From Deltaproteobacteria bacterium (GTDB lineage Bacteria > Desulfobacterota > JAFDED01): DNA of 64,000 nucleotides. A model generated the notes under the pieces. The model worked only from the letters and a program-made list of their open reading frames with translations. It was not told where the DNA came from and did not search any database. The DNA is taken from contig JAFDED010000004.1 of NCBI GenBank assembly GCA_019310535.1, positions 27,699-91,698 on the forward strand, given 5' to 3'. Both the position numbers and the translations under genes were made by a program. Of this stretch, positions 1,284 through 34,467 are shown piece after piece; the first letter of the stretch is position 1; each line of letters starts with the position of its first letter.

Positions 1284-2480
1284 ATGGAAAAAACGGCAAT
1301 AATACTTGCTCCCGATGATAGAGGGCTTCAACCGGTATTCGGTATTCCCGCAGTTCGCAGGCTCGCTCTTCTCATCCTCCAGATGGGGCTTCGAGCTGTA
1401 CATATAGTCGGGCACGTCAATCCCCTTACCGCGATTCTTTCCGATCTTCTCCCACCGCAAGCATTCCATCAGTTGGACGATCCATCCTCGCTGGATCGAG
1501 TTGCGGAGGGGCTCGCTCTTCTTGATGAAGAGAGGGTTCTCGTGTTAAAAGCCAATCTTGTCATTGACCGGCATTCCCTTGCTCGATTGATTGAGGCCGG
1601 GAATAACTCGGGCCTTTATTATATGGAAGCCGTGGGGGAGAACGGCGCTGAAAGACTTTACGTGTGCAGCCCCGCCGATCTTGTCTCGGTCTTCCGCGGC
1701 CTATGGTCGCTTGATTCATCATATTTTACAATTCCAGACAAAGCGCAGCTCGTCCGGGGTGTTGCGGGACTTCCTTATGCTGCCGACAAGGGAGAGGAGC
1801 AGACAAGGTCTGCAGAGGCCAAGCTGATTGCGGCCCTTTCCTTCCAGACCGCAGCGGGTGATGGCTTTTTAGCCCGCCATTTTGATCGGCGAATCTCACG
1901 CGCTATCAGCGAGAGGCTTGCCCGAACCAGGGCGACACCGAATCAAATCACTCTCGGCGGCATGACAATAGGGCTTATCGGGGCATACCTTCTTTCATGG
2001 CCGGGCTACTGGTCCCACCTCATCGGCTCTTTGTTGTTTCTCTTTTGCGTCATTGTGGATGGTGTTGACGGTGAGGTGGCCCGTTTGACGGTACAAGAGA
2101 CCCGCTTCGGCCATTATCTGGATATAATTACAGACAATATAGTGCATGGTGCCATTTTCGCGGGGATAGCTTTTGGCCTTTACCATGACACAGGTGATGG
2201 AGGGTACCTGCGTGCTTTATGGTTTCTCATGGGCGGTTTTGGACTGAGTATTGTTGCGGTGTATCACTGTATTTTAAGGCGAAGCCCCGATGAGCTCAGA
2301 CGATCACCCATTACTATTCGGCTGATGACGCTCCTGGCCAGCCGCGACTTTGCCTATCTTGTTGTCGTCCTGGCAATTTTTAACAGACTCAGTTGGTTCC
2401 TAATCGGTGCAGCGGCAGGGTCTTATCTGTTTGCCGCTGCTTTATGGATTATAAGTATCCGTGAAAAAGCAAACGCGTGA
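1284..2480 (+). CDS. CDP-alcohol phosphotransferase with N-terminal degenerate nucleotidyltransferase-like domain
   Basis: TPNQIT and DGVDGEVAR...GHYLDIITD signature, followed by hydrophobic helices. Confidence 0.85.
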   Translation: MEKTAIILAPDDRGLQPVFGIPAVRRLALLILQMGLRAVHIVGHVNPLTAILSDLLPPQAFHQLDDPSSLDRVAEGLALLDEERVLVLKANLVIDRHSLARLIEAGNNSGLYYMEAVGENGAERLYVCSPADLVSVFRGLWSLDSSYFTIPDKAQLVRGVAGLPYAADKGEEQTRSAEAKLIAALSFQTAAGDGFLARHFDRRISRAISERLARTRATPNQITLGGMTIGLIGAYLLSWPGYWSHLIGSLLFLFCVIVDGVDGEVARLTVQETRFGHYLDIITDNIVHGAIFAGIAFGLYHDTGDGGYLRALWFLMGGFGLSIVAVYHCILRRSPDELRRSPITIRLMTLLASRDFAYLVVVLAIFNRLSWFLIGAAAGSYLFAAALWIISIREKANA

Positions 2481-2661: not shown

Positions 2662-3879
2662 TCAATATTCAGTTAATTGGCAGCACCGATTGCAGATAGG
2701 AAGCAGTCCGCCCTGGTCCATGAGCATTCCGCGAAATTTCATAAAATTGGAACCGTGCCAGATCTCAAGAAAAGGGGTTTCATACACATTCCCCATGGAA
2801 AGAGGGGCATCTGTGAAAAGGTTGCACGGGTAAACATTGCCATCTGCGTCTATGGTGGGCTCATCAAAGGGCACCGGGCAGGGACCGCGACCAAGATCCC
2901 AGGAATAATCGGCATATAAGCGAGGAATCTGATGTAAGGGAATATGAGGGAGGGGTTCCAGTAAAAAGTCGAAAGCTTCCTTTTTAAGCGCAGAGACAAC
3001 TTTAACGATTCTGTAACCCTCCTCGACGAAATCTGAATAATCGTCCCTGAATCCTCCCGGTGACAAGACCCCTTTATCGACATCAAAGTATTTCTTTACC
3101 AGGTTAATGTACGCCTGCTCAGCTTGCTCAGGAATAAAAATCGGGGATAGTTTGATTTCCAAAACGTCTGCCAGTTCTTTTCCTCGTAAATCCCGGCAGA
3201 GATTTCTCAGGGCCATGGCACCGTTGTGCCTGTTCATCGTGAAGGCAATCTGTACCAGGGGAGTGTTTCTTCCCAGCCTTTTTTTCATCTCCCGAAGAGC
3301 ATACAGCCCTTTCATAGTTTTGTCATAGGCCCAGTTGCTACCTCTGATCTGGTTATGGGTATCTTTGTCGCCGTCTATTGAAACCGTTATTGATGTAACG
3401 CCTGATTTAACAACAGCACCGGCACAATGATCGAGCAACGTCCCGTTAGTAACAAATTTAACATAAAGGTTTTGTTTGCGCATCCTGTCCAGTAGCGTTT
3501 CAAATTGCGGATACAGTAAGGTCTCTCCACCTTCCATATCTATCAGTTTCAATCCCCTGGGTGTTAATTCATTCAGGATACGTTCTATGACTTCAATCTC
3601 AAGCAGGGTATTTCTTTTTGACGTATCGTACGCAAAATAGGCCCCGGTTTCTCCCCATTGGCCGCACATTTTGCACCTGAGGTTGCAATCATAGAGAATG
3701 CGAAGGTTGAGCTTGGTGGGAAAATAGGAACGGGGTGTAGGCATACGGCCGTGTTTCAAGATTTTCCTGATCCGGGTCGATTGTCTCCGCCCCAGCAGAT
3801 AAAAGTAGTACCCGGCGTTTACTCTTAGATTTTTCCACAGTCTCCAGTAAAGCTTCATTCGTGTTTTAGAAAGTACCAT
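2662..3879 (-). CDS. Radical SAM protein with SPASM/Twitch-type C-terminal domain
   Basis: CNLRCKMC, GGE, TNGTL, SIDG; C-terminal CPVP...DGNVYPC...CNRCC. Confidence 0.9.
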   Translation of the reverse strand: MVLSKTRMKLYWRLWKNLRVNAGYYFYLLGRRQSTRIRKILKHGRMPTPRSYFPTKLNLRILYDCNLRCKMCGQWGETGAYFAYDTSKRNTLLEIEVIERILNELTPRGLKLIDMEGGETLLYPQFETLLDRMRKQNLYVKFVTNGTLLDHCAGAVVKSGVTSITVSIDGDKDTHNQIRGSNWAYDKTMKGLYALREMKKRLGRNTPLVQIAFTMNRHNGAMALRNLCRDLRGKELADVLEIKLSPIFIPEQAEQAYINLVKKYFDVDKGVLSPGGFRDDYSDFVEEGYRIVKVVSALKKEAFDFLLEPLPHIPLHQIPRLYADYSWDLGRGPCPVPFDEPTIDADGNVYPCNLFTDAPLSMGNVYETPFLEIWHGSNFMKFRGMLMDQGGLLPICNRCCQLTEY

Positions 3880-3906: not shown

Positions 3907-4521
3907 CTATGAGCTTTTTTCAATGGCCTGAAGCTGCAAGCGCATCTTTTGCAGGAGGATTTGATACGATTCCCGCTTGATCACTCTGCCGAAGGATTTC
4001 CGGTAGTTTTGGACAATGCTCACACCGTCGATCTTCACGTCGTGAACAAGCCACTCCTCATTCACCAGTGACAGGAAGTAATCCACTGGAATTTCCTCAT
4101 GTGTCCGGAGGATGGTGGTCTTTACCACAGCCCGGCCCTGATTGATATCTTCTTCAGTGTAGAGAATTGTTTCTTGCCTGAGAAAGTCCAAGACAAGCCT
4201 CGTATAGGAGTCCTGAAAAAGGTCCTGGAAAATGCCTTTGAATTCTGTCCGTTGAGCGCCATTGAGCTCCTGCCAATACCGGCCCAGAGACTGCTCAGCC
4301 ATTGCATCGAAATCAAAATTTTTGGCGATGACCTTTTTAATGGCAATCCTCCTTACCTCCCTGAATTCATGACCCTGGAGTTCAGGATCGCCCTGGATAG
4401 ACATCATATCTTCAAGCATTCGGCGTATTCCCTCTGTAGGCTCCTCTGCCTGACAGGGGGCATATAAATAGAAAAAGGAGAGGGCTGAGAGCATGGCCAT
4501 CGCGATAATTTTCTCTTTCAT
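3907..4521 (-). CDS. MlaC/Ttg2D (HpnM-like) periplasmic lipid-binding protein
   Basis: Signal peptide; FDFDAMAEQSLGRYW, IPVDY, W..HDVKIDGVSIVQNYRKSF. Confidence 0.85.
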   Translation of the reverse strand: MKEKIIAMAMLSALSFFYLYAPCQAEEPTEGIRRMLEDMMSIQGDPELQGHEFREVRRIAIKKVIAKNFDFDAMAEQSLGRYWQELNGAQRTEFKGIFQDLFQDSYTRLVLDFLRQETILYTEEDINQGRAVVKTTILRTHEEIPVDYFLSLVNEEWLVHDVKIDGVSIVQNYRKSFGRVIKRESYQILLQKMRLQLQAIEKSS

Positions 4522-4565: not shown

Positions 4566-7337
4566 TCACCGGTTAATGTTTTGTTTCGGGGAAAGATGAG
4601 GTGTTGAATGGATTCGCCCCCTTTCCGAAAAATTTGTCATAAGCTGCATAAAGGCCGGGAGGAAAAGAATTGCTGCTGCCAATATGCACAGACTCCCCAC
4701 CATAGCAAGCAATCCCAGGCTATGGATGCCCTGGTGGTCTGATATGGCGAGGCTCCCGAAGCCCACAGTGGTTGTGAGCCCCGCGAGGATGACCCCCTTG
4801 GCGGTGCTGAATGGAAGCGTCACGTTTCCGGTGTCGCCGCCTTCGTGCTGCCGCCAGCGGTCTATGATGATGATGCCATATTCGACACCGGCGCCGACGA
4901 TGAGGGGCAGGAAGATGCTGTTGGCCAGGTTAAAGTCTACTCCAAGAAAACGCATCAATCCCATAGTCCACGCCGTTCCTACTACGAGCGGCATCATGAC
5001 CATGAAGGCATGGATCAGGTTACGGAAGGTGAGGAGCATCAGAGTGAAGATAAAAACCACCGCGTACATAGCCGCTTTAATAGCCGCATCGCGAAAGGCC
5101 TTGGTAAATACATAGAGAGTAACGGGATCACCGATGACGTCAGGGTCAACGGATCGAAGGTCACGCACGAACCTGCCGAGAAGCACCGGATCCCAGATAT
5201 CCTGAGACGGAAAAACCCGGATGAGATAATGACGGTCTTTGCTGACAAAACGCTGGAGCAGGGGTTTGGGTAAATCCTCAAGCTGCATGGGCGCGGCGTT
5301 CACATTGGTGCGGAGAATGTCAACCTTGTCGTTCAGGTCTTGGATCAGAGCACGTTCAAAGGCGTGCAATGCATCAGAAAGACGAGGTCTCTCCATGGAG
5401 TGAAAGCGGTGCCGGAGTTGATCAATGAGGTCTCGCACCTGGATCATTTGTGTTTCCACGGGCTTGCTGACACCCCACTGGGACTTACTGGAATCCAGCA
5501 TTTTAAAACGAATCCTGCCAAGGGTCTTATCTAATTCTGACAGATTGACAGAACCATCAGGACTTCGGGGTGAACCGACTCTTATCAGTAGCGGTTTCAT
5601 TTGCCGCAGGAAATCGATCTTGTCCTCCTGATCTTGAGGGAGTAAATTTATTATGCTTTGCACTTCCGAAACCGTTGGGAGAACCTCAAGGGCCGTCGTC
5701 TTTTTTTGAACTTCTTCAAGAGAGCGGGCCAGGACCGCTCCATACATGCTGGAACGCTCAGAACCTTCGAGAAGTTTTTTTTCCCAGATGACCGATTCCG
5801 CTCCTTTGGATTGAAGCCGGAGCATATTCAGGTCAAAGGTCACCTTTCCCGCTCCCCACAAAGACAAGCCCAATCCAATGGTGGCGGGAATCAAGATGGC
5901 AATGGCCCATCTGTTGTTTAGTTTCAACAGATGTTTCACCCGGGCGGGAGGCAAAAGGGTCCCTGTTCTGTGGCTTGACTTATCGAATATCAAGGCAAGA
6001 GCGGGCAGAACACAGAGCGTGGTCGCCGTGGTCATGAGCATTCCCATTGAGGTGATGATCCCTAATTCCACCAGGCCCCTGAAACCGGTGAGCACAAGGG
6101 GGAAGAAAGAAAGGGCTGCAGTCAAACCCGCGAGAAGAATCCCCGGACCGAGCTTGATCATGGTAGCCTGAATGGCCTCTCTCTTAGTAGCAGCCCGGAG
6201 CTGTTCCTCTTCTTGATAGCGGGCGAACCAGTGAATGCCGTAATCAATGCCCAATCCGAGAAGCAGAGGCGCAAAAGTTACTGATAGAATATTGAGATGA
6301 CCGATGAACAAGGTGGTCAGGCCGAAGGTCAATGATAGAGCGATAAGGAGCTCGATAATTTCCAACAGCGGTCGCCGGAACCCTCGCCAGAAGAGCACAA
6401 GAAGTCCCATGAGTCCGAATAGAGAGAGCACGGTGGCCAGGCTCATATCATGAAACGCCACGCCCATTTCATCCTCATTCAAGGCCTCTTGCCCGGTGAC
6501 GCCTACCTCTATATGGGGAAATCCGGCCTGCACCCGGGCAATCGCTTTCCTCAGGGCTTGCAGAGAATGCTGCGCATTGACAAAACTCTTGTCTATCTTT
6601 CTGGGCGTAACGAAAAGAAGAAGATACCGTTTATTTTCTGTCCAGAAATAACCCTCCTCGGAGTCATGGTCCCAGGATTTTTCAGTGAAAAACGATTCCC
6701 ACGGAGAAGTATAAGAAGCGTCTCCGTCCAACCAGTCTCTCAATTCCCGCAGGACACGAATGAGAAAACCAAGATCGAGAGGTTCTTTATCACTCTCTGA
6801 AGGGGTCTCATTGAGAAACCCGGTAAAAAGCTCTCCCACCATTTCGGAAGCCATCTCATGATTGACTCCCCTGAAAAAATCGGTCAAACCGGGCGACTGC
6901 ACCAGATTTTCAATAAAGCCGCGGTGTTCCTGGATGTTATCGCGAAGGGTTACGAGATCTTTTTTGTCCAGATACAGAAGCACCCAGGGCCTGAAAGGTT
7001 TTGGGTCCACGCGGTAAAAGACCTGAATGTAATTTTCGTCATCCTTCTCCAGTTGGGAGACCAAGGTGTGGAGAAATTTCAGGGAGCGTGAATTGTCCCG
7101 GTTTTCAATGGCGACCACAAAGGTGTCCAGATCCTCAAACTGATCCATCTGTTCCGACAGCCGTATCAGCCGATTGTGCGGAGAGATGAGATCTTTCTGG
7201 CTGGTGAGGAAATCCAGATTCCTTACGGTGTAAAAAATTGAAAGCGCGGCCAGTGTGAGCGCAATAAAAAGGGTAAGAAAGGGGTGCCCGGTTACAGCGA
7301 TGAAAATTTTTCGCAATACCCGTTGCAAGGCATTCAT
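4566..7337 (-). CDS. MMPL/RND lipid transporter, HpnN-like
   Basis: 923 aa with two MMPL repeats (GLGIDYGIH, GAGVEYGIII); located next to hopanoid genes. Confidence 0.85.
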   Translation of the reverse strand: MNALQRVLRKIFIAVTGHPFLTLFIALTLAALSIFYTVRNLDFLTSQKDLISPHNRLIRLSEQMDQFEDLDTFVVAIENRDNSRSLKFLHTLVSQLEKDDENYIQVFYRVDPKPFRPWVLLYLDKKDLVTLRDNIQEHRGFIENLVQSPGLTDFFRGVNHEMASEMVGELFTGFLNETPSESDKEPLDLGFLIRVLRELRDWLDGDASYTSPWESFFTEKSWDHDSEEGYFWTENKRYLLLFVTPRKIDKSFVNAQHSLQALRKAIARVQAGFPHIEVGVTGQEALNEDEMGVAFHDMSLATVLSLFGLMGLLVLFWRGFRRPLLEIIELLIALSLTFGLTTLFIGHLNILSVTFAPLLLGLGIDYGIHWFARYQEEEQLRAATKREAIQATMIKLGPGILLAGLTAALSFFPLVLTGFRGLVELGIITSMGMLMTTATTLCVLPALALIFDKSSHRTGTLLPPARVKHLLKLNNRWAIAILIPATIGLGLSLWGAGKVTFDLNMLRLQSKGAESVIWEKKLLEGSERSSMYGAVLARSLEEVQKKTTALEVLPTVSEVQSIINLLPQDQEDKIDFLRQMKPLLIRVGSPRSPDGSVNLSELDKTLGRIRFKMLDSSKSQWGVSKPVETQMIQVRDLIDQLRHRFHSMERPRLSDALHAFERALIQDLNDKVDILRTNVNAAPMQLEDLPKPLLQRFVSKDRHYLIRVFPSQDIWDPVLLGRFVRDLRSVDPDVIGDPVTLYVFTKAFRDAAIKAAMYAVVFIFTLMLLTFRNLIHAFMVMMPLVVGTAWTMGLMRFLGVDFNLANSIFLPLIVGAGVEYGIIIIDRWRQHEGGDTGNVTLPFSTAKGVILAGLTTTVGFGSLAISDHQGIHSLGLLAMVGSLCILAAAILFLPAFMQLMTNFSERGRIHSTPHLSPKQNINR

Positions 7338-8764
7338 TTTTTCCGGTCCTCTTGCCAGTCCTTCGCGCCCGCAACAAATTCCAACTTGGCCAGGGACATG
7401 TTGTAATTGAACAGCGCCTCAAGATATTTGCTCTGATTGTGGCCGTACTTTTCTATGGCCACAAGCATATTTTCGGCTGTTCCAACGCCCATATCGAAAT
7501 CGGCAAGGGCTGTGATTACCCATTTTCTGGAGGAGGAGACGGCCTTGCGATAAGCGTTTACGGCCTTTTTCCATTCCAGTACCTCTTGGTAAGATTTAAC
7601 TGTCTGGATACGGATGTTCATCTCAGCAGAAGCTTTTGTATAAAGAAGTTTGCTGTACTCCGCCGATACTTTATCCACCTTGGCTCTGCCGATCCCAAAA
7701 TCGAACTCCCATTTGACTCCGGCCACTACTCCGGCGTAGGCGTGATTGAAATCGTCAGGGATATAGGGGTTATCCAGGATATCCCGGCCCGGAGCCGTTG
7801 CAAAGGAACCCTCCAACGCGACAAAAAAGGAAGGATACCTGTCGCTCTGAGCCGCTTGCACCTGGAACTTTTGGGCTTCCAGTGCAGCGTTAAGCTGCTT
7901 GAATTCCGGGCGATTTGCAAATGCCTTTTTAATATAACTTTCCATCTCATCGAGGTCTTCATCCTTCATCGGGAGAGCTTCTTCGGCAATATCAAACTCC
8001 TTGCCGGGGGGCAGGTGGATTAGGGATTTCAAGGCAAAGTAAGCAACCTCCACTCCCTTTTGTGCCTCAGCTCGGGACCTGATGGAATCGGCACGGAAGG
8101 CATCGATCCTGTAAAGATCGCTTTCACTGACATTGGGGGAATCTAAATCCAAGAGGCGAATGATCCGGCGTCTGGCATCGTCAAAAAAATCCCCCGCTTC
8201 ATCGGCCGCATCGATTCCTTCACGGGCAAGAATCAAAGCGTAATAGAGTTGCTTGACCCTGAGGGCAATCCGGCTTTTTTTCTCTACAAGGCCGAATTCC
8301 TTAGCCCTGACTCCATCGCTGGCCGCTTTTCTTCGGTTAGCGAGCTTGCCAAAGGTATAAAGGGGTTGAGTTATGGTAAAGTCCAGCCTGCCAAAAATAC
8401 CTATATTGGAAAGGCTCGTGCCGGGGGAGGGGTCAAAGATTTTGTTATCGCGAATCACCGGTTCCCTGGCATCATCGATGGGGCCGACAACGGCTGTGCT
8501 CTCAAGCTGCGGATAATATGCGGCTTTCACCTGTTCAAGATCGCTTCGGGCTGCCGCTATTTCACTTCGGCTCTCACCAATCTCAGGGCTCTTGGCAATG
8601 GCCATATGGATCAACTGCGGCAAACTCAGGACAAGCTTCTCTTTTATCCGGGGTTCCCCCCAGGCCGGCCCGTGGAGGATAAAAACCGGGCAGAGGCTCA
8701 TAATTAACGTTAAAATAAAGAATCGGGCGGAAAATCGAAAACTGTGTATTATAGGCATGTCCAA
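7334..8764 (-). CDS. TolC-family outer-membrane channel
   Basis: Signal peptide, TQPLYTFGK, VKQLYY, NRPEF, YNMSLAKLE outer-membrane efflux repeats. Confidence 0.85.
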   Translation of the reverse strand: MDMPIIHSFRFSARFFILTLIMSLCPVFILHGPAWGEPRIKEKLVLSLPQLIHMAIAKSPEIGESRSEIAAARSDLEQVKAAYYPQLESTAVVGPIDDAREPVIRDNKIFDPSPGTSLSNIGIFGRLDFTITQPLYTFGKLANRRKAASDGVRAKEFGLVEKKSRIALRVKQLYYALILAREGIDAADEAGDFFDDARRRIIRLLDLDSPNVSESDLYRIDAFRADSIRSRAEAQKGVEVAYFALKSLIHLPPGKEFDIAEEALPMKDEDLDEMESYIKKAFANRPEFKQLNAALEAQKFQVQAAQSDRYPSFFVALEGSFATAPGRDILDNPYIPDDFNHAYAGVVAGVKWEFDFGIGRAKVDKVSAEYSKLLYTKASAEMNIRIQTVKSYQEVLEWKKAVNAYRKAVSSSRKWVITALADFDMGVGTAENMLVAIEKYGHNQSKYLEALFNYNMSLAKLEFVAGAKDWQEDRKK

Positions 8765-8788: not shown

Positions 8789-9802
8789 TTAGGGCTTCCC
8801 TCCCACCGGCTCTTTCTTTGGGAAAAGCCCTCCTTCTCGTTTCGCCGACAAGAGAGTCGCATACAGCAAAAGTCCGACTCCAGCCCAAAAGATTTGCTCC
8901 AATCGGAGTACCACCCCGTATGTCAGACCCAGAGCCAGGTCAAAACCCACGGCCTTGAGAGCAAGCACTCTGGTGCCCTCCTGGATACCAATCCCCAGAG
9001 GGATGGGAAATGTCAGGAGATCAAACCAACTCCCCAGAAACCAGATCCCTGCAGCAATAAAAAAAGACCCATGATCTGTTAACAGGAGCAAGAAATACCA
9101 GGCTTGCACAATGCCGCAGGCCATGCCGACAATATGCCAAAAAATGGCGAAAGGTAAATTTCCGGGGCGCTGTGTGTAAAAGCATTTGAGTTCTTCATCC
9201 ACGGTTGTAAGATGGCCGGCCAGAGTTTCCAGGGCCTTTCCGCCCAAATTGTGGGTGACGAACCATCGCGCAACAGCACCGAATTTACCAGCCTTTTGAA
9301 CAATCAAGAATCCCACGATTCCTGCCGCAAGAAGGGAACTGCTCACCAGCATTGCAGGCCAAATTCCCGGGGGCAGGTGAATTTTCCAAAGGATGAAAAA
9401 TGTTCCGAAGGCTACAAAAAGGAGTTGTGCAAGGGCATATGCCAGCTTGCCGATGAGGACACTGGTGATGGCATCAGTACCGCCATGATTCGAGGCCAGG
9501 AGAGCTCCCTTGGTCACCTCACCACCCAGAGTGGCCGTCGGGGTAATATAGTTGATGGAACTGCCGGCCATCCGGATGCGAAATAATTGAAAAAAGGGGA
9601 GAGATCGATGGGGTCCGGTAAGGCAATATCGCCATCCGAGAGTATGAAAAATGTCCGCCACTCCTTCAATCAAGATCAATGGCACGAGTCCCCAGCCCAG
9701 CAGAGCCAGTTCCCGCCATAATGCCTTGGGGCCGATTTTCCAGATCAGGAGGGCCAGCAGGATTATCCCGAAAAGAACGCTGTATGTGTGGAACTTTTTC
9801 AT
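8789..9802 (-). CDS. Lysylphosphatidylglycerol-synthase TM / flippase-like membrane protein
   Basis: Polytopic; INYITPTATLGGEVTK and IPLGIGIQEG motifs. Confidence 0.8.
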   Translation of the reverse strand: MKKFHTYSVLFGIILLALLIWKIGPKALWRELALLGWGLVPLILIEGVADIFHTLGWRYCLTGPHRSLPFFQLFRIRMAGSSINYITPTATLGGEVTKGALLASNHGGTDAITSVLIGKLAYALAQLLFVAFGTFFILWKIHLPPGIWPAMLVSSSLLAAGIVGFLIVQKAGKFGAVARWFVTHNLGGKALETLAGHLTTVDEELKCFYTQRPGNLPFAIFWHIVGMACGIVQAWYFLLLLTDHGSFFIAAGIWFLGSWFDLLTFPIPLGIGIQEGTRVLALKAVGFDLALGLTYGVVLRLEQIFWAGVGLLLYATLLSAKREGGLFPKKEPVGGKP

Positions 9803-11082
9803 CAGGTCCCTACGGCCTGTTGCCCGAGTGTCTTTTTCATTGTTCTGTTGTATTGAATCAACCGAACGCCGTGGATGACGGCGGTAAGAGCGGCCCAGAC
9901 AGCCACTACGGCGAAAGTGTAAAACGGATAACCCAGCGAAAAACCAAAAATAAACATAATACCGTAGACGTTGCGCCGTCCGGCGATGCGCCGGAATGTC
10001 GCATCGAAAGGGCTGAATAGATCAATGCTTTTGCTATACCATCTGCCCGCCAGAGTATAAACTATATTATCCGCTGTATCTGAGAGAATCAGCAAGCCAG
10101 CCAGGAACGCGGGCAAATTATTTGGGGCTGTGTCCCGTAATCCCACTGCCAGGGCCACGTACCAGCTATTCTCATAGATATAGTCGATAACGTCTTCATA
10201 CTTCCCGAATTTAGTATAGTGAAGCTTGGTGCGTGCCAGCTTGCCATCCACGCCATCCAGGATTTCCACAAGAAAGGTGCATAAGGCTCCCGCCACAAAA
10301 TAGCCGTGCCAGAACAGCCATGCCACCACCACCCCAACAGCCGCGCCGATCAGGGTAATCATGTTGGGAGTAACGGGTGTGTTGCAAAGGAGCAGGGTCA
10401 GCGCATTTTCAATGGGTGGATCGATGAATTGAGCGGGGAGATCCATAACCTTTTTTTGCTGACTGCGGATCAAGAGTCGGGTCGCTTCCCGGGCATCATC
10501 CTTGGAACGCACTTCCATGAAATAAGGGGTCAAAGGTCCTCTGATCTCCGGACAGAAAGGATTAATGTCGCCGGGGAAAAGGAATCCGGAATGACTGATC
10601 AGGGCGGCGCTTCCTTGTTTGGCCCAGATATGAAGATCCTCTATTTTCAGGAACCCCGCCCGAATTACCCGCCTTTCCCTGTCTACGGGGTCGATATAGG
10701 CAAAAGTGGTTCCTGATGCGGATGCCAGAGTGTATAAGAGCCGGGGGTCAATCAGGTGTGCCGTGTCAATGTATAAAAAACGCTGCTCAAGATCGGTAAT
10801 GGAGAGAATTGTACCCGGGATATTTACCTTTGCCCTCACCTGCTGTAATTCGAGGGTCCCCTGCCATTTCGTGAGCTCTATGGGGATACTGTCGGTGCTC
10901 AAAAGCAAAACGACCTTTTTTATCCCTGCCTCTTTGAGGTGGAAAAGCGTCCTTGCGGTGAGCGTAATACCGCCCACTTTCTCCCACGCTCCGGGATGGC
11001 AAGCATTCAGAATGGCCAGAGACGGAGGCGTGTTTTGGGTGGCTTCCGGAGGATGAGATACCTGTATGGATTCTGAAAGCAT
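9802..11082 (-). CDS. Second CDP-alcohol phosphotransferase with degenerate N-terminal NTP-transferase-like domain
   Basis: TPNMIT, DGVDGKLAR...FGKYEDVID; C-terminal TM helices. Confidence 0.85.
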   Translation of the reverse strand: MLSESIQVSHPPEATQNTPPSLAILNACHPGAWEKVGGITLTARTLFHLKEAGIKKVVLLLSTDSIPIELTKWQGTLELQQVRAKVNIPGTILSITDLEQRFLYIDTAHLIDPRLLYTLASASGTTFAYIDPVDRERRVIRAGFLKIEDLHIWAKQGSAALISHSGFLFPGDINPFCPEIRGPLTPYFMEVRSKDDAREATRLLIRSQQKKVMDLPAQFIDPPIENALTLLLCNTPVTPNMITLIGAAVGVVVAWLFWHGYFVAGALCTFLVEILDGVDGKLARTKLHYTKFGKYEDVIDYIYENSWYVALAVGLRDTAPNNLPAFLAGLLILSDTADNIVYTLAGRWYSKSIDLFSPFDATFRRIAGRRNVYGIMFIFGFSLGYPFYTFAVVAVWAALTAVIHGVRLIQYNRTMKKTLGQQAVGT

Positions 11083-11090: not shown

Positions 11091-12140
11091 CTACAGAATC
11101 GGATTATGGACCGGGATAAAACACGACCCTTCTCGATGAGATTTATAGGCGAGATAGGTAAGTTGAGCACAATACTTGCATTCCATAAAATTGGCGCCGC
11201 GAGCATCGACTTCCAGTATTTCCCGATGAAAATCCTCCATTACGGGTTTCATCCAATCCAAATGATGGGAACCTCCGGAAAGGGCTTCAGCGAAATCATA
11301 CCGGGTGGGCGGCAAACCATCGGCGTGCAAAATCAGGTGATCATCATTGATAACAATCGTTCCCTGTTCTCCCGTGATGGTTCCATAATTTTGACGATAC
11401 GAGGCCCGCCAGGTGAGTTGCAGCCGCGCCTCTGCATCGCGGAATCGCAGCACCACATCCACCGTCTCCTCCAAACCGGGGCCATTAACTTGTGAGTACT
11501 CCATCCTGGCCGAGATAGACAAGGGCGACTCATTGATGACGGAGAGAATCAGGTAGAAATGGTGCCAGCCATGATCCAGGAGAATGCCGCCGCCGGCAAT
11601 TTCTGCGCACTTCCGCCAGTTAGTGGCGCCTCCACCCGAATTGGAAGGGCGCAGCACCGTGAGTAAGATGGATCGCACGGTGCCGATTCTGTTTTCGCGG
11701 ATGAGTTCGACCGCCTTGGACCAAAGAGGTGCATGTTTCCAGTTGTTTACGGTAAAGATGACCCGCTGAAACTCATCGGCGGCCTCCTGGATCTTATGCA
11801 AACTTTCTAAAGAAGTTACAAGAGGTTTTTCACAAAAAACGTGCAGTCCTGACCTGCACGATTCGAGCATGAGATCCGCATGAAAACAGGGAGGAGTGCA
11901 GATATCCACGAAATCCAGATCGTTCTCGGCAACCAGGGGTTCTATTCCAGAATAAATCCGCGCTTCCGGTAGCACATCCATTGCTACCCTGGCCCGTTCG
12001 GGAAGGGGTTCCACGACGGCATCAATTCTAAAATGGTTGCTTTTCAGCCATAAGGGCAAATGAGCATGAATTGCCACATTGCCAAAACCGATAATGGCTC
12101 CCCGCAATGGGGGACTATGCTTGGGATTATCCCCGGTCAT
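11091..12140 (-). CDS. Gfo/Idh/MocA-family NAD(P) oxidoreductase
   Basis: IIGFGNVA, ICTPP..H, CEKP, GGGILLDHGWH; start moved to ATG at 12140 (AAAGGA RBS). Confidence 0.9.
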   Translation of the reverse strand: MTGDNPKHSPPLRGAIIGFGNVAIHAHLPLWLKSNHFRIDAVVEPLPERARVAMDVLPEARIYSGIEPLVAENDLDFVDICTPPCFHADLMLESCRSGLHVFCEKPLVTSLESLHKIQEAADEFQRVIFTVNNWKHAPLWSKAVELIRENRIGTVRSILLTVLRPSNSGGGATNWRKCAEIAGGGILLDHGWHHFYLILSVINESPLSISARMEYSQVNGPGLEETVDVVLRFRDAEARLQLTWRASYRQNYGTITGEQGTIVINDDHLILHADGLPPTRYDFAEALSGGSHHLDWMKPVMEDFHREILEVDARGANFMECKYCAQLTYLAYKSHREGSCFIPVHNPIL

Positions 12141-12153
12141 TGAGAGTTTTCCT

Positions 12154-13500
12154 TTATCTTTTATAAGGGATATGTTTGGCCAGGAATGCAAAGACGTCAT
12201 CAAGAATTTGTAATCCTACGTCCGCTTCTTCCTTGCTGAGACTCAAGGGAGGATTGACGCGGAAGTTGGGTTTGTAATTCATGCTCATCATGCCTCTTTT
12301 GAGCGTCTCCAGGAAAAGCTGTCTCGTAACGGCTTTATCAAGAGGTTCCTTGGTTTTCCTGTCCTTTACCAGTTCTACGCCGATAAGGAGACCACAACCA
12401 CGGACGTCTCCGATAAACTCATATTTTTCCTGAATCCGGCGTATTCCATTGAGCAGATAATCACCCACTGTGCGCGAATTTTCCACCAGGGATTCCTCCA
12501 GGATCGTTTGAATGGTCGCCAGAGCTGCGGTGCTGGCCAGGGGATTTCCCCCGTAACTGCTTGAGGATGCACTGGGTTTTGAAAAGGGCTTGCTCTTCGT
12601 GATCTCCTCAGTAGAGACGAGACCGCTGATGGGAAACCCGTTTCCCATTCCTTTCCCGATGGTCATGATATCGGGCCTGATGCCTGTATGATTGGAGCCG
12701 AACATCATTCCTGTGCGGCCAAATCCGGTGATCATTTCATCGGCAATAAGAAGAGCGTCATTTTCATGTGCGATCTCAAGCAGACCAGGAAGAAATTCCG
12801 GGGGTGGAATCACGTTGCCCGCCGTGCCCTGCATGGTTTCAACAATGATCGCGGCGAGGCCCCCTGCTGTATTGTTCTCAATAACTTTGCGGATGAATTC
12901 CAGACAGAAAAGGCCGCACCGAGGATATTCCATTTTAAATGGGCAGCGGTAACAATCAGCATAAGGTGCCAGATGAAGACCAGGATGAAGCACTTGCCAG
13001 TGTTTTTTAAACGGATCACCAATCAGGCCCAGGACTCCGCTGGTTTTGCCGTGAAAACCGCCCCAAAAACCGAGGATTTCAAATTTCTTGGTGTACGATT
13101 TGGCTAAACGAATGGCAGCCTCCACCGCTTCTGCACCGCCGCTGTAAAGTTGGATTTTGTTCAGGCCCGGAGGTGTCAGAGAAGCGATCAACCGCATCAA
13201 AGCCAACCGGTTTTCCGTAGTGAAGCTGCCCACGGTAATTTTTTCAAGCTGCTCTTTAATGGCCGCGACGTATTTTTGGTGTGAGTGTCCCAGGCTACAA
13301 ACCGCCACACCAGCCATAAAATCCAGGTAACGCCTGCCATCCGCGTCTACAAGCCAGCAGCCGCTTCCTTCCTTGATGGCCAATTGAGACAGTTGGGCCA
13401 CTTCCTGAAGGCCGGGCGACATGTATTGCTGTTCTTGAAGGTACAGTTGTGAAGACATCGTTTCAGCGATGTCTTTAATAGACACAGCTTGATATTCCAT
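12154..13500 (-). CDS. Class III PLP aminotransferase (same class as HpnO)
   Basis: SGGAEAVE, GFHGKT, IADEMITGFGRTG, PDIMTIGKG, YGGNP. Confidence 0.9.
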   Translation of the reverse strand: MEYQAVSIKDIAETMSSQLYLQEQQYMSPGLQEVAQLSQLAIKEGSGCWLVDADGRRYLDFMAGVAVCSLGHSHQKYVAAIKEQLEKITVGSFTTENRLALMRLIASLTPPGLNKIQLYSGGAEAVEAAIRLAKSYTKKFEILGFWGGFHGKTSGVLGLIGDPFKKHWQVLHPGLHLAPYADCYRCPFKMEYPRCGLFCLEFIRKVIENNTAGGLAAIIVETMQGTAGNVIPPPEFLPGLLEIAHENDALLIADEMITGFGRTGMMFGSNHTGIRPDIMTIGKGMGNGFPISGLVSTEEITKSKPFSKPSASSSSYGGNPLASTAALATIQTILEESLVENSRTVGDYLLNGIRRIQEKYEFIGDVRGCGLLIGVELVKDRKTKEPLDKAVTRQLFLETLKRGMMSMNYKPNFRVNPPLSLSKEEADVGLQILDDVFAFLAKHIPYKR

Positions 13501-14317
13501 TAAATTCTCCTTGGCAGATTCGCGTTATGTAGCTCGCGATGCTTTTGGCTGCAAACTGGCGACATAGCGAAAAGCTGGGCCAATCATTGAGATCGATCAA
13601 CACCACGTCACCTCCTCGGGCAAGGATTGCATCACCCCCGTAAATTTCAAGGCCCACCGCCTCAGCAGACCGGCTGGCTATTGCGGCGAGTTGTTTCATC
13701 CGCGAGGTGACCTCTTCGCCGCTGGATGCCAAAAATGCGCTGAAATAATCACCGGCACCCACACCGTAAAACTTGATCACCCGACCCTCCACATGTTCCT
13801 GGACAAGAATCTCCTCAATCTTCTGTCCGCGGAAATGATTGAGTGCTCTGTTCAGTTCTTCGCTCGATGCTATCTTCACGACATCATCTGACCGTATAGC
13901 ATGAACATCCCCTCGCTTCAACCAGTACCGGGTGGACGACCCGAAAGAGATTTTCCGCTCCACTTCTTCGAGGGGGACAATCTGGCTGGGAGGTATGGGG
14001 AAGCCACCTTTTGCAAGCAGATGAATCAGAGGCTTGCGATAACAGTTGCGAACCGAGCCGACGGAGTTGATGATTCTGGTTCCGCTCTTGTGCCAATTTT
14101 CTATGATATTGAGTGCCCGATTAGATTGTACCATGATCAATGCGCAGGAAGGTCGCATGGAAAGAATATCAAGAGCTTCGGCCTGCACGGTAGAGACCTC
14201 ATACCCCAGACGGGACAGCTCAAGCAGGGTGGCGTCCAGAATAGCGGCGTCTTCACGGACTTTTCCCGGTGAAAAGATTGGCTCCCGATACACGCCGAGC
14301 ACCGTCATGCAGTGCAT
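13475..14317 (-). CDS. ATP-grasp-like protein of unknown function
   Basis: WLKRGDVHA, VQEHVEG, KFYGV, IYGGD, IDLNDWPSF. Confidence 0.7.
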   Translation of the reverse strand: MHCMTVLGVYREPIFSPGKVREDAAILDATLLELSRLGYEVSTVQAEALDILSMRPSCALIMVQSNRALNIIENWHKSGTRIINSVGSVRNCYRKPLIHLLAKGGFPIPPSQIVPLEEVERKISFGSSTRYWLKRGDVHAIRSDDVVKIASSEELNRALNHFRGQKIEEILVQEHVEGRVIKFYGVGAGDYFSAFLASSGEEVTSRMKQLAAIASRSAEAVGLEIYGGDAILARGGDVVLIDLNDWPSFSLCRQFAAKSIASYITRICQGEFNGISSCVY

Positions 14318-15021
14318 TTCTTCTCAGTCTCCCGCAAATAGGTTTCAGCCTTCTCTATATCTTCGCGATAATCCACATCGACAGTCTTGGAGACCGGGAT
14401 ACCATACAGTGAATACCCGCTTTCCATCAAAAAGCCCAAAAACTGGCGAAGAGCGTTCATTGCTTTTGCCTGCGCGGCTTCTATCATAGCAAAGATGTCC
14501 GGCTTAAAATAGTAAAAACCGGCAGTCACATACCGGCTCGGGCGGGCGGAATCTCCCATGGCAAGTATTTTAAGACGAGTATCCACTCTCACCCACAGTG
14601 GCTTTTCATCATCGATGAACCGGGTGAGAGCCAAAACCCCCTGCGCGTTATTCAGGGTTTGAGCTTTTGTAAGAAACTTTTCCAGGCTCTCGAATCCAAA
14701 TACCGAATCGACGGTAAACAAGACAAAGGGTTCATCGCACAAAAACGGAGCCAGCGAAAACAGGCTTTCCATGGAACTGGGTGTAGTCTTCACAACGAGT
14801 TCCAAATGGACCGGCCAAGAGCCCGAACGCACGTAATCGGCGACAGCAGGGTTCAAATCGTTCACAATGCAGGCGATGGAAGTTGCTTTGACTTTCGCGG
14901 CGGCACGAATGACCCTGGCAATCAAAGGCTCGCCGCCAACAGGAATTAAGGGCTTTGGGATCGAGATGCCTCCCCGCGCGAGACGTTCTCCTCTGCCGGC
15001 AGCGATGATTCCCGCCTTCAT
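14305..15021 (-). CDS. Nucleotidyltransferase (NTP_transferase family)
   Basis: IIAAGRGERL...PKPLIPVGG; DVDYREDIEKAE. Confidence 0.9.
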   Translation of the reverse strand: MKAGIIAAGRGERLARGGISIPKPLIPVGGEPLIARVIRAAAKVKATSIACIVNDLNPAVADYVRSGSWPVHLELVVKTTPSSMESLFSLAPFLCDEPFVLFTVDSVFGFESLEKFLTKAQTLNNAQGVLALTRFIDDEKPLWVRVDTRLKILAMGDSARPSRYVTAGFYYFKPDIFAMIEAAQAKAMNALRQFLGFLMESGYSLYGIPVSKTVDVDYREDIEKAETYLRETEKKCTA

Positions 15022-15773
15022 GAGATCAACGCCTCCAGCTCAGACAGGCTTGATATCCAGGCATCCACGGGGCCGGCATTCTCAGGCATCCGAGGATTGG
15101 GTCCCTTCATCCAGATGGTTTTCATTCCAAGTTCTCGGGCCGGAATCATGTCCCTCTCATAAGAATCCCCGATAAAAACAACCTGTTCTGGGGACAAATT
15201 AAGCTTGCCCAGAGCGGTCAAGAATATCTCAGGGTGAGGTTTGCTGATCCCGGCCTGAGCGGAGTCCAGAATTACATCCAGTGATTCCGCCAATCCCGCC
15301 TCTTCACACAGTATGGAGACATTGCCGTAAAAATTGGATACCAAGCCCAGCCGATACCGGTTTTTCACGCGGCCGAGTAAACGCGCGCTTTGCAGGAGAA
15401 ACCGCTCCGATTTGTTACAAAATGCTTCGACCAATTTTTTCTCTTTCCCGTGATCCTCCAGGTTCAAGGCCGCAAACTGCAAATGCACATGGTGTTTCAT
15501 CAATGGGCGGAGGCCGAGTGAAACCACCAGTGAATCATTGCAGCACAGGGCGTCAGCATGATAAAAAGCGCGCTTGATTTCGGAACGGGGGACGTCCAAT
15601 CCGAAGTGTTCGTAGAGAGCGTAAAACCGATCCAGCCAGTGTTCCCCGTCGGAATCCAGGGTGCCTCCGAAATCGAAAAGAATTGCCTTGCATTCACGGA
15701 ATTTCGAGGCATTAATATGGCCGGCACCGGAAAAAACACCGCCGGGACCGCCGCCATCAGCTAACGAACACAC
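15018..15773 (-). CDS. HAD-superfamily hydrolase/phosphatase
   Basis: FDFGGTLD, VSN, KPHPEIF, IGDSYERD motifs I-IV. Confidence 0.9.
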   Translation of the reverse strand: MCSLADGGGPGGVFSGAGHINASKFRECKAILFDFGGTLDSDGEHWLDRFYALYEHFGLDVPRSEIKRAFYHADALCCNDSLVVSLGLRPLMKHHVHLQFAALNLEDHGKEKKLVEAFCNKSERFLLQSARLLGRVKNRYRLGLVSNFYGNVSILCEEAGLAESLDVILDSAQAGISKPHPEIFLTALGKLNLSPEQVVFIGDSYERDMIPARELGMKTIWMKGPNPRMPENAGPVDAWISSLSELEALIS

Positions 15774-15806: not shown

Positions 15807-16919
15807 TCAAACCTTGCCCGTCGGGTATGTTTCTTTTACCATATCCGCTTCGGAATCGGAAGCGGGTTCGGCACCACTCATAATCAGATCCGGGGCCATG
15901 GGACCATCGGTGCCGGGACCTCGCAGATACACGTATAGTGCCTTGAGCGGATGTGCCAGAGCGTCGTTTACCGCCGTCGCCTCAAAACCGCTGTGAAGCA
16001 TGCAGTTGGCGCATTTGGGGTTGCGCCCCGTGCCGTAGCTCTCCCAGTCTGTCTCCTCCATAAGCGCCTTGTAGCTGGGGGCATAGCCCTCATCCACCAG
16101 AAGATAACAGGGCTTTTGCCAGCCAAAGACGTTCCGCGTGGGGGTACCCCAGGGAGTGCACTGGTAGGTCTGGTTGCCTGCAAGAAAATCAAGAAACAGA
16201 CTCGACTGATTAAATCTCCACTTACGCCCTCTGCCCAGCTTGAAGATATCCCGAAAGAGCTGTTTACTGTGTGTGCGCTTCAGGAACATGTCTTTCTGTA
16301 GGGCGTGCGCATAGCTGTATCCGGGAGATACGGTGATGCCTTCCACGCCCATGCCCATGACGCAATCGAAGAGTTCGGCGGCTTCTGCGGCGGTCATGCC
16401 ATCATACAGAGTGCAGTTAACGGTAACCCGAAAGCCCCTCGCGTGTGCAAGCTTTATTGCCTCCACCGCCGAATCATAGACTCCTTGCCGACAGGCCAGA
16501 GCATCATGCCGTTCCCGACAGCCGTCAAGGTGAATGGAGATGTTCAGAAAGGGCGATGGGGTGTAGTCCTTGATGTGCGTTTTCAGCAGCAGGCCATTAG
16601 TGCAAAGATAGATGAACTTCTCGCGCCTCACCAGGCCGGCCGCAATCTGCGGCATGTCCCTGTGGATCAGCGGCTCGCCCCCGGCGATCGATACGATAGG
16701 TGCACCGCATTCATCCACTGCAGAGAAACATTCCTCCACACTGAGACGTCGATCGAGGATCTCCTCAGGATAGTCGATCTTGCCACAACCGGCACAGGCG
16801 AGATTGCATTGGAACAGGGGCTCCAGCATCAACACCAGTGGATAGCGCCGCCTCCCGCGAAGCTTCTGGCTGATTACATATCGCCCGAGACGATATTGCT
16901 GAATGAAAGGCACACTCAT
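15807..16919 (-). CDS. hpnH: Adenosylhopane synthase (hopanoid radical SAM)
   Basis: RYPLVLMLEPLFQCNLACAGCGKIDYP, CTPWG, GWQKPCYL, CANCMLHSGFE; start at ATG 16919 with AGGAG RBS. Confidence 0.93.
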   Translation of the reverse strand: MSVPFIQQYRLGRYVISQKLRGRRRYPLVLMLEPLFQCNLACAGCGKIDYPEEILDRRLSVEECFSAVDECGAPIVSIAGGEPLIHRDMPQIAAGLVRREKFIYLCTNGLLLKTHIKDYTPSPFLNISIHLDGCRERHDALACRQGVYDSAVEAIKLAHARGFRVTVNCTLYDGMTAAEAAELFDCVMGMGVEGITVSPGYSYAHALQKDMFLKRTHSKQLFRDIFKLGRGRKWRFNQSSLFLDFLAGNQTYQCTPWGTPTRNVFGWQKPCYLLVDEGYAPSYKALMEETDWESYGTGRNPKCANCMLHSGFEATAVNDALAHPLKALYVYLRGPGTDGPMAPDLIMSGAEPASDSEADMVKETYPTGKV

Positions 16920-16938
16920 TGCGCGCTCCTGAGGGAGA

Positions 16939-17853
16939 TCATAGTGATTCAGGCAGCCGGACGTGCATGTGTTCCCGCTCAGCGTCCATCTCTCTGACCT
17001 CACCGGCACCGAAGGCAAGCAACCTCTCTAAAACCCTTTGCACCATCTCTTCCGGCGCCGAGGCCCCGGCCGTGATCCCTACCACGCAGTCTTCCCAGAA
17101 CCAGGCCCTGTTTATATCCTCCGCATCCTCGATCAAATAGGACGGTACACCGCTGTGCTCGCCCACCTCGCGCAGACGATTGGAATTGGAACTGTTGCGG
17201 CCGCCCACTACCAGCAGCACGTCTATGTCCCTGGTCAGCCGGCGGACAGCGTTCTGTCGACTCTGGGTGGCATAACAGATATTACTCAAGTCCGGCCCCT
17301 GAATAAGGAAACGCTTCTTCAACGCCTCGATCACCCCCAGGGTATCGTCAATGCTCAGGGTGGTCTGGGTAACATAGGCAAGCCGATCAGGACGACTGAC
17401 CCGCAATGTGGCAACATCGGCGATACTGGACACCACATACACCGGACCTTCCACACGGCCCCGGGTGCCCTCCACCTCCGGATGGCCGGGGTGGCCGATG
17501 ATGACGACCTCAAAGCCCTTGCGGCTGAAGTGCTGGGCCTGCAGATGCACCCTGGTGACCAGCGGACAGGTGGCGTCAATGATCCGCAGGTTCCTTTTTT
17601 CCGCCTCCTTGACCACCGCTGTCGGTACACCGTGGGCACTGAAAATGGACACCGCACCGGGAGGCACTTCATCGAGGGATTCAACAAATAAAGCTCCCTT
17701 GACCTTCAAATCTTCGACCACGTGGCGGTTGTGTACGATCTCATGCAGGACATAGATAGGCGAGTCATAGGTCTCCAGTGTACGTTCCACAATTTTTATC
17801 GCGCGGATCACTCCTGCACAAAACCCGCGCGGCTGAGCCAGTATCACCTGCAT
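16939..17853 (-). CDS. ispH: 4-hydroxy-3-methylbut-2-enyl diphosphate reductase
   Basis: PRGFCAGV, HEIVHN, SAHG, DATCPLV, QTTLS, ICYATQ, SSNS, TAGASAP. Confidence 0.97.
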   Translation of the reverse strand: MQVILAQPRGFCAGVIRAIKIVERTLETYDSPIYVLHEIVHNRHVVEDLKVKGALFVESLDEVPPGAVSIFSAHGVPTAVVKEAEKRNLRIIDATCPLVTRVHLQAQHFSRKGFEVVIIGHPGHPEVEGTRGRVEGPVYVVSSIADVATLRVSRPDRLAYVTQTTLSIDDTLGVIEALKKRFLIQGPDLSNICYATQSRQNAVRRLTRDIDVLLVVGGRNSSNSNRLREVGEHSGVPSYLIEDAEDINRAWFWEDCVVGITAGASAPEEMVQRVLERLLAFGAGEVREMDAEREHMHVRLPESL

Positions 17854-23336: not shown

Positions 23337-23744
23337 ATGATCAGACCGAAAAGAATATACTTGACAGCCCTGCTGGCAGTGAGTGCTTTCTTGATTGGAT
23401 ATGCCTCTATATCCATAGCGGATGAGAAGGGGAGTGGTGGACCCAAGTTTGACCTCAAAATCGCTCCAGAGGCTGATGTCAAAGCCAGCGCGTATAAGAA
23501 AGAGTGGAAAGGGAAAAGCCGTCTCCACGTGCAATTGGAAATCACCAACGTGACCGACAAGCCACAACGTTTCAAGGTTATGGGCGACATCCCGGAGGGG
23601 CCTGCCTTCGCCATGAAGGTTCCCCGGAAGGGCAAACCACCGGTGGTGAAACCCAAGGAGACCCAGAAGGTTGTCTTCCCGCTGATTTACGAGAAGATGC
23701 CGGATCGGATCTTTATTGAGCTGATTACCGTTTCTGCGCAGTGA
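23337..23744 (+). CDS. Small secreted/periplasmic hypothetical protein
   Basis: AAGGAGG RBS, signal peptide, beta-rich mature part (LHVQLEITNVTDKPQRFKV). Confidence 0.7.
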   Translation: MIRPKRIYLTALLAVSAFLIGYASISIADEKGSGGPKFDLKIAPEADVKASAYKKEWKGKSRLHVQLEITNVTDKPQRFKVMGDIPEGPAFAMKVPRKGKPPVVKPKETQKVVFPLIYEKMPDRIFIELITVSAQ

Positions 23745-23848
23745 ATTTCGGAGATGAAACAAGGTGCAGGATCATTAAACCTCTTTCCGAGGGGGAAACC
23801 CCCTATTACTGGGAGGGCGACGAGACCCCTGCCAAAAGGAGGGTAGAG

Positions 23849-24820: not shown

Positions 24821-24860
24821 CCTCCATCGATTGATTCGTTTTCTGTTAACGGTACCATGT

Positions 24861-34466: not shown

Positions 34467-34467
34467 G

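Follow-up and report, generated by a model that had tools for sequence, protein, structure and literature searches.

The nearest described relative of the locus analysed here is a gene cluster of Bacteroides vulgatus and Prevotella that unites inositol-3-phosphate synthase (MIPS), an NTP transferase, a CDP-alcohol phosphatidyltransferase and a HAD hydrolase, with LPG-synthase-like and carboxypeptidase-regulatory-like genes nearby; species with only this version of the Bacteroidetes cluster make inositol phosphoceramide (Heaver et al. 2022, PMC9246714, main text). The terms ATP-grasp, aminotransferase and hopanoid occur zero times each in that main text. A second relative is IPCT/DIPPS of A. 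fulgidus (structure 4mnd, family NF041135), which takes inositol phosphate through CDP-inositol to a phosphodiester and serves to make a soluble solute in thermophiles. Here we describe a locus in a 64,000-nucleotide stretch of a Deltaproteobacteria genome (assembly GCA_019310535.1, contig JAFDED010000004.1, positions 27,699 to 91,698; hereafter the window), in which five adjacent minus-strand genes encode a HAD-IA family protein (HAD), a nucleotidyltransferase (NTP), a 280-aa ATP-grasp protein (AGL), a class-III PLP aminotransferase (AT3) and a GFO/IDH/MocA NAD(P) oxidoreductase (GFO).

The five genes overlap or nearly abut their neighbours within a longer minus-strand run. Family calls on window proteins rest on Pfam and NCBIfam scans with curated cut-offs, which assign four of the five: HAD (15018..15773; Pfam Hydrolase, HAD_2), NTP (14305..15021; NTP_transferase), AT3 (12154..13500; Aminotran_3, 331.5 bits) and GFO (11091..12203, true start probably near 12140; GFO_IDH_MocA and C-terminal domains). 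The exception is AGL (13475..14317), for which Pfam gives nothing within the default E-value limit. An earlier reading of the letters alone (the sequence-only reading) had placed these open reading frames correctly, and all seven motifs that it quoted are present in the translations: FDFGGTLD..G.HW and VSNFYGN in HAD, VKTTPSSM and IDDEKPL in NTP, and WLKRGDVHA, KFYGV and IDLNDWPSF in AGL. Its gene set was right for the five genes but ended before the gene for a CDP-alcohol phosphotransferase (CDPOH1; 9802-11082), so that this gene and the flippase-like gene beyond it (8789-9802) were cut off from a set in which it had listed both. These two complete the set directly downstream, and HpnH lies directly upstream.

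On balance we think it somewhat probable that the five genes are the core of a conserved operon for an inositol-derived, usually aminated, CDP-activated phospho-head group, which would be put on a membrane alcohol and exported.

Homology to the Bacteroidetes cluster and conservation of the gene order

An AGL search of public genomes returned 29 related loci, 23 of them from Thermodesulfobacteriota, Syntrophorhabdales or Syntrophobacterales-type metagenome-assembled genomes, two from Elusimicrobia and four from Prevotella; gene order was determined by local BLAST with the window proteins. All four Prevotella loci contain NTP-AGL-CDPOH-HAD, with 25-41% identity to the window proteins (HAD 29-32%, NTP 36-41%). 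The NTP transferase, CDP-alcohol phosphotransferase and HAD of the Bacteroidetes cluster are thus all found in the window operon, homologous and syntenic with all four Prevotella loci. In one of these (L033) MIPS is next to HAD, and a DUF5686/CarboxypepD_reg protein then follows in L029 and L033. Given this synteny and these identities, we take the likeness to be real homology and AGL to be, as judged by sequence, a fifth core gene of the Bacteroidetes alternative cluster. The sequence-only reading had pointed to such a likeness; its description agrees with the main text of PMC9246714, and the homology that it wanted checked is present.

Besides NTP, the phosphotransferase and HAD, the window operon shares with the cluster of Heaver et al., as presented in their main text, a nearby LPG-synthase-type membrane protein and MIPS as the entry enzyme. 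It differs in having GFO and a class-III aminotransferase, lipid-export genes and a hopanoid context, and in that its MIPS lies outside the cluster. The phosphotransferase differs too, being of a ~400-426 aa type with an extra nucleotidyltransferase-fold domain in the window, compared with ~310 aa in the Bacteroidetes cluster.

Among the relatives the typical order is MIPS-HAD-NTP-AGL-AT3-GFO-CDPOH1-HpnL-TolC-HpnN-MlaC. Of the 23 deltaproteobacterial-type loci, 14 have MIPS immediately before HAD, and several of the other nine are truncated at contig ends; SHC, HpnG, HpnI, HpnJ, HpnA or HpnH are found farther upstream in many. Three related loci (L014, L016 and L036) read HpnH-MIPS-HAD; in the window the HpnH stop coordinate is 33 bp from the HAD start. 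No inositol-3-phosphate synthase is encoded in the window, as the sequence-only reading had stated, but the genome does possess one: its sole PF01658 match is on contig C16, where the contig end is 270 bp away and the upstream neighbours are unrelated. Because MIPS adjoins HAD in 14 of 23 relatives and sits elsewhere in this genome, its absence from the window cluster is a local rearrangement and not the sign of a different polyol.

The arrangement was also assessed in an independent phylum sample of 401 genomes, 31 of which are AGL-positive; 32 AGL loci were taken from 30 of these. AT3 neighbours AGL in 29 of the 32, a CDP-OH transferase in 25, GFO in 24, NTP in 23 and HAD in 22, and a flippase-type membrane protein is joined to the module in half of them (16/32). 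This context favours the amino-cyclitol that the sequence-only reading had proposed. In the two Elusimicrobia loci the order is HAD-NTP-AGL-AT3-GFO-CDPOH-MIPS, the last being a true MIPS, in which both Pfam MIPS domains are present; there the module adjoins BamA, Skp and LpxD, with no hopanoid genes nearby.

Some loci depart from this pattern. In the Elusimicrobia locus L028 a GNAT acetyltransferase gene (15865-16392) comes after MIPS, and the amine may be N-acetylated there. Genome G087 (L044, L063) has three AGL copies, two of which lie 6 kb apart in HAD-NTP-AGL and AGL-AT3-GFO-CDPOH, which suggests that the module was duplicated. AGL homologues without the module were seen in L021, L023, L025 and L063; those of the first three are 43-49% identical and adjoin a SAM methyltransferase and a DUF1614 gene. 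The module-less homologues, which were left out of the inference, probably form a paralogous subfamily; for those of L021, L023 and L025 its substrate is probably a different one.

Nucleotidyltransferase, phosphotransferases and HAD protein

CDPOH1 (9802..11082, minus strand) is a 426-aa protein with an N-terminal nucleotidyltransferase-fold domain, its Pfam CDP-OH_P_transf match covering residues 238-336. Among solved structures the nearest by sequence is A. fulgidus IPCT-DIPPS (4mnd, E 5.9e-9), in an alignment that starts in the tail of the cytidylyltransferase domain. An AlphaFold model of CDPOH1 (pLDDT 89.8, from a 29-sequence alignment) predicts the same two-domain fold, with 4mnd as the top Foldseek match across both domains (E 8.2e-15, TMq 0.65, 446 columns), followed by AF2299 and PIP synthases. 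The N-domain matches IspD and glucose-1-phosphate thymidylyltransferase separately (Foldseek, E 1e-5 to 1e-4), and BLASTP of this domain against the operon's own NTP gave nothing significant, a kinship at fold level only.

A second phosphotransferase of the same two-domain layout (CDPOH2; 1284..2480) is encoded on the plus strand, convergent with the operon (PF01066; PIPS 59 bits). CDPOH2 has the canonical DGx2DGx2AR..Gx3Dx3D motif and is of the type found with the module across the phylum. The seven sequences of the CDPOH1 clade have a motif shorter by one residue, with a variable third Asp (D, C or N) and a conserved Glu before it. CDPOH1 is confined to loci that also bear AT3 and GFO, and we speculate that it may be a paralogue specialised for an aminated donor.

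The free-standing NTP is a probable (amino)inositol-phosphate cytidylyltransferase. It has G-x-G-x-R-L and PKPL motifs and matches the IPCT half of NF041135 weakly, though over its full length. Because the G-x-G-x-R signature is missing from the N-domains of CDPOH1 and CDPOH2 and present in the separate NTP, the fused N-domain is probably non-catalytic. The window proteins thus share with IPCT/DIPPS the predicted two-domain fold of the phosphotransferase, the match of NTP to the IPCT half and, in the pathway proposed below, the course from inositol phosphate via CDP-inositol to a phosphodiester. They differ in scoring far under the NF041135 cut-off of 580 bits (51.6 for NTP, 62.9 for CDPOH1, 81.9 for CDPOH2), in having the cytidylyltransferase as a separate gene and the fused N-domain without G-x-G-x-R, and in being accompanied by amination and lipid-export genes.

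In HAD, motif I reads D-x-G-G-T and lacks its second Asp in 50 of 51 homologues (L006-L066), including those of Prevotella. This second Asp is the general acid/base of HAD superfamily phosphatases. Because it is absent, the label 'phosphatase' is uncertain for the module HAD, and the change in motif I suggests non-standard chemistry.

Models of PIP synthase and archaetidylinositol-phosphate synthase (42-61 bits) are matched by CDPOH1 and CDPOH2 too, as are PIPS structures, and this opens a scheme of the opposite polarity, like that of bacterial PIP synthase, in which AGL and NTP would phosphorylate and CMP-activate a lipid alcohol, the phosphotransferase would join the CDP-lipid to inositol 3-phosphate and HAD would remove the phosphate that remains. 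Such a scheme has a role for all five core genes and accounts for a phosphatase, the characterised B. thetaiotaomicron route serving as the parallel (PMC9246714, main text). We nevertheless consider it unlikely: the best matches are to DIPPS, whose donor is CDP-inositol; the nucleotidyltransferase is of the soluble sugar-phosphate type and weakly IPCT-like; the ATP-grasp kinases among the AGL matches act on inositol phosphates, not lipids; and HAD is without the usual general acid/base Asp.

The same DIPPS matches could point to a soluble solute resembling the di-inositol phosphate of hyperthermophiles, possibly aminated, with no lipid involved. MIPS, a cytidylyltransferase, a DIPPS-like transferase and a phosphatase-family protein do make up the gene set for that solute, and IPCT-DIPPS is the closest solved relative and best NCBIfam match for both halves. 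The low NF041135 scores, the flippase-type protein in 16 of 32 loci, the TolC, RND and MlaC lipid-export genes of the window and the inositol phosphoceramide made by species with only the Bacteroidetes version (PMC9246714, main text) all speak for a lipid instead, and a purely soluble product seems to us quite improbable.

Amination genes and hopanoid context

No gene of the module is better conserved than AT3, for which identity is 76-84% among close relatives, 52-63% among distant ones and 54-57% for Elusimicrobia. The AT3 motif DE..TGFGRTG is present in all 46 homologues, and the GFO motifs CEKP and DHGWH (EKP and D-x3-H in the superfamily) in all 37. Neither protein reaches an NCBIfam equivalog cut-off, the best match of GFO being iolG (TIGR04380; 73.5 bits against a cut-off of 355). 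Their solved relatives are generic, with no close one that narrows the substrate: 6s54, GABA and putrescine aminotransferases and racemases for AT3, and glucose-fructose oxidoreductase, ahead of weaker inositol dehydrogenases, for GFO. The pair fits the classic conversion of hydroxyl to ketone to amine on a cyclitol, giving an inosamine head group; the putative substrate could be the free, phosphorylated, CDP-bound or lipid-bound cyclitol.

The operon begins with IspH (HMBPP reductase; 16939..17853, minus strand; NF002188 447.8 bits, cut-off 420), followed by HpnH, a radical SAM adenosyl-hopene transferase (15807..17018, minus strand) that at 532 bits is well above its TIGR03470 cut-off of 225. 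In the 401-genome phylum sample, SHC was found in 69 genomes, with 26 of the 31 AGL-positive against 43 of the 370 AGL-negative, and HpnH in 70, with 28 of 31 against 42 of 370. The three AGL-positive genomes without HpnH are 62%, 79% and 85% complete, all 12 families with AGL-positive genomes fall among the ~25 HpnH-bearing families of 111, and the only genome of the same genus (G033) is without AGL, SHC and HpnH alike. SHC is also present in all five genomes behind L017, L018, L020, L028 and L032. The module-hopanoid association is therefore strong, and at genome level the module is nested within C35-hopanoid producers, but the association does not identify the acceptor.

Further hopanoid genes of the window genome lie on contig C136, which has shc, hpnG, hpnA and genes for an HpnI-like glycosyltransferase and an HpnJ-like radical SAM protein. 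An open reading frame of 191 aa beside hpnG and shc on this contig (L004, 8855-9430) has a match to the N-terminus of an IS4 transposase and an MMPL fragment; it looks like an HpnN-type remnant and fits a rearrangement that split an ancestral shc-to-hpnN locus.

Downstream of CDPOH1 on the minus strand are genes for an HpnL-like LPG_synthase_TM (flippase-like) membrane protein (8789..9802; PF03706 93.2 bits; TIGR03476 114.3 bits, cut-off 195.65), a TolC-like outer-membrane channel (7334..8764; Pfam OEP in two stretches), an HpnN-like RND (HAE3/MMPL) lipid transporter (4566..7337; TIGR03480 532.9 bits, cut-off 751.85; BstA 300 bits) and a MlaC/HpnM-like periplasmic lipid carrier (3907..4521; PF05494 123 bits; TIGR03481 HpnM 72 bits, cut-off 160). 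The locus thus resembles a hopanoid gene set in its full HpnH member, in the HpnN-, HpnM- and HpnL-like genes of the same operon and in the nesting of the module in HpnH-bearing genomes, and is unlike one in that the HpnN-, HpnM- and HpnL-like proteins all score under their family cut-offs. A search of the Atlas for a fusion partner that could reveal the substrate of the HpnL-like protein yielded only plain LPG_synthase_TM clusters. In the available part of a 2025-26 preprint on hopanoid loci, HpnL is left unassigned and neither inositol nor CDP is mentioned. The same part of the preprint gives the DUF2147 family as HpnT, and a DUF2147 gene stands between the HpnL-like and TolC-like genes in L016 (15496-16047).

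The 14-gene locus comprises 13 minus-strand genes and the convergent CDPOH2. The last minus-strand gene encodes a radical SAM/SPASM protein (2662..3879; Pfam Radical_SAM and SPASM), which could further modify the cyclitol or the lipid; a 77%-identical gene comes after MlaC in the relative locus L006. Upstream of CDPOH2 on the plus strand is an Asp/Glu racemase-family gene (322-1005). A separate island of the window (23741-38602), with TRAP and Tct transporters, a D-glutamate cyclase-like protein, a class-IV aminotransferase, hydantoinase/oxoprolinase A and B and an old-yellow-enzyme-type reductase, probably imports and degrades a cyclic amide or D-amino acid.

In such surroundings AT3 might be a functional HpnO merely placed among inositol genes, with GFO acting on a hopanoid side chain (ribosylhopane or bacteriohopanetetrol). 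HpnO is a class-III aminotransferase, and a note to Table 1 in the available part of the hopanoid-locus preprint states that no HpnO-specific profile exists. HpnH and IspH are in the operon, and hopanoids are made by all module-bearing lineages outside Bacteroidota among those checked. The position of AT3 says otherwise: it stays between AGL and GFO in 29 of 32 loci, with hopanoid biosynthesis genes nearby in only 4 of 32, and in Elusimicrobia the AT3/GFO pair sits between AGL and the CDP-alcohol transferase and MIPS genes. In L015, AT3 is accompanied by another aminotransferase, PigE/putrescine-aminotransferase-like and 28% identical, which lies between IspH and HpnH and by sequence and place appears the better HpnO candidate. 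The window genome has no close orthologue of this putative HpnO that we could find (nearest protein 34% identical), a point in favour of AT3 filling the role, and no HpnO model was among the best 25 of 69 NCBIfam families for either AT3 or the L015 aminotransferase. Gene context argues against orthology of AT3 and HpnO and also against a plain HpnO acting independently, the alternative that the sequence-only reading had named for itself. A role of AT3 and GFO on the hopanoid side chain thus seems to us as improbable as the soluble solute.

The ATP-grasp protein and the predicted pathway

The AlphaFold model of AGL (pLDDT 92.9, from a 27-sequence alignment) has the ATP-grasp fold, as the sequence-only reading had guessed for the 280-aa protein. 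The top Foldseek matches of the model are LysX, ArgX, RimK and Ddl, and VIA aligns it with RimK at Z 24.0 (root-mean-square deviation 2.5 over 250 residues). The RimK/LysX-type ligase model TIGR00768 gives 29 bits against a cut-off of 143.4 and is not reached. When the AGL family profile was compared with PDB sequences, the best match was inositol 1,3,4-trisphosphate 5/6-kinase 4 (ITPK4, 7pup; E 2.7e-4), with ITPK1 at E 0.018, and the alignment of the three spans the catalytic GGD and D-x-N-x-x-PSF motifs. The AGL site is D-x-N, as in ITPKs, whereas the ligase PsnB from the same search has E-x-N.

Among Bacteroidota structural look-alikes in the ESM Atlas, AGL-like domains are fused to other enzymes of the module, which we treat as leads, not tests. 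They are joined to the NTP transferase in two clusters of 92 members each (564 aa, and 527 aa with Pfam Ins134_P3_kin in 51% of members), to a HAD domain in one of 418 members (512 aa) and to CDP-OH_P_transf in one of 60 members (601 aa). AGL is also kept in versions of the module that have no aminotransferase (all four Prevotella loci, L017-L020, L022 and L026). Likeness to ITPK1, ITPK4 and PPIP5K2 thus lies in the ATP-grasp fold, the aligned motifs, a VIA match to PPIP5K2 and the Ins134_P3_kin-bearing fusion cluster; unlike the ITPKs, AGL does not reach the Pfam ITPK model and its overall fold is nearer to RimK/LysX. Because it is retained without the aminotransferase and fused to phosphate-handling enzymes, we read AGL as a probable ITPK-like cyclitol or cyclitol-phosphate kinase and reject acylation of the new amine as its main role. 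The version put forward by the sequence-only reading, a non-inositol amino-polyol head group acylated by AGL as a ligase, can draw on the overall fold and weak family matches, on AT3 as a neighbour in 29 of 32 loci and on a window without MIPS, but given the MIPS gene adjoining in 14 of 23 close relatives and present in this genome, the aminotransferase-free modules and the D-x-N motif, we regard it as the least probable of the alternatives.

In the pathway that we prefer, of a Kennedy or IPCT-DIPPS type with inferred steps, MIPS encoded on contig C16 would supply inositol 3-phosphate, whose phosphate HAD and the ITPK-like AGL would re-tailor. This could proceed by dephosphorylation, ring modification and re-phosphorylation, or through a bisphosphate intermediate that is dephosphorylated after transfer. 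GFO would oxidise one ring hydroxyl to a ketone, which AT3 would convert to an amine to give an inosamine. The nucleotidyltransferase would then form the CDP-activated cyclitol, CDPOH1 and CDPOH2 would transfer the phospho-cyclitol onto a membrane alcohol, and the HpnL-like flippase-type protein together with the TolC, HpnN-like RND and HpnM-like set would carry the product to the outer membrane. For the acceptor, an extended hopanoid such as bacteriohopanetetrol and a diacylglycerol, ether lipid or ceramide-type lipid seem to us about equally plausible, neither being more than a tentative choice. That the product is a phosphodiester-linked inosamine on bacteriohopanetetrol is a bolder proposal, which we hold to be rather unlikely but worth stating.

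Several observations weigh against this pathway or its link to hopanoids. MIPS is at the locus, within the fetched stretch, in just 5 of the 32 phylum-sample loci, and its genome-wide enrichment is weak (25/31 AGL-positive against 212/370 AGL-negative genomes), because MIPS is common in the phylum (237/401). SHC was found in none of the four Prevotella genomes bearing the core module, so that the module can do without hopanoids. At only 4 of the 32 sampled loci does the fetched stretch contain recognisable genes of hopanoid biosynthesis, and because the sampled genomes are related, counts of co-occurrence make them look more independent than they are. The overall fold of AGL is nearest to RimK/LysX ligases (Z 23-24, with PPIP5K2 at Z 20 in VIA), ITPK1 is not among the 50 VIA matches listed, and of the 27 family members 16 match Pfam ATPgrasp_ST and 5 RimK, while Ins134_P3_kin (PF05770) matches only one, at E 0.25. 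HAD without the second Asp of motif I is a poor fit to a plain phosphomonoesterase, and the active-site motif of the CDPOH1 clade is shortened and does not conserve the third Asp. The cyclitol ketone transaminases that we know of are of the DegT/StsC class, not class III. The CDP-inositol route in Bacteroidetes is itself proposed and unconfirmed (PMC9246714, main text).

Our literature search, which did not cover the supplements of PMC9246714 and of the hopanoid preprint with their possible neighbour lists, found no description of this gene set, and the lipid type would possibly be undescribed so far. For the gut Bacteroidetes, a biochemical reconstruction of the alternative pathway would need the ITPK-like ATP-grasp protein to be included. 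Few head groups are known for hopanoids, which are major lipids of bacterial membranes and also geological biomarkers, and we know of none that is phosphodiester-linked or inositol-derived. A conserved operon linking a pathway for inositol or inosamine phosphate with genes of hopanoid synthesis and export predicts a class of lipids that standard hopanoid work-ups would miss. The HpnL-type gene comes directly after that of the enzyme whose product the HpnL-type protein would flip, which gives it a testable role. If the bacteriohopanetetrol reading is true, the locus would hold the first functions for HpnL-type proteins as flippases, for the TolC, HpnN-like and HpnM-like proteins in outer-membrane export and for AGL as a bacterial cyclitol kinase, and its product would be the first phospho-hopanoid, corresponding among hopanoids to phosphatidylinositol.

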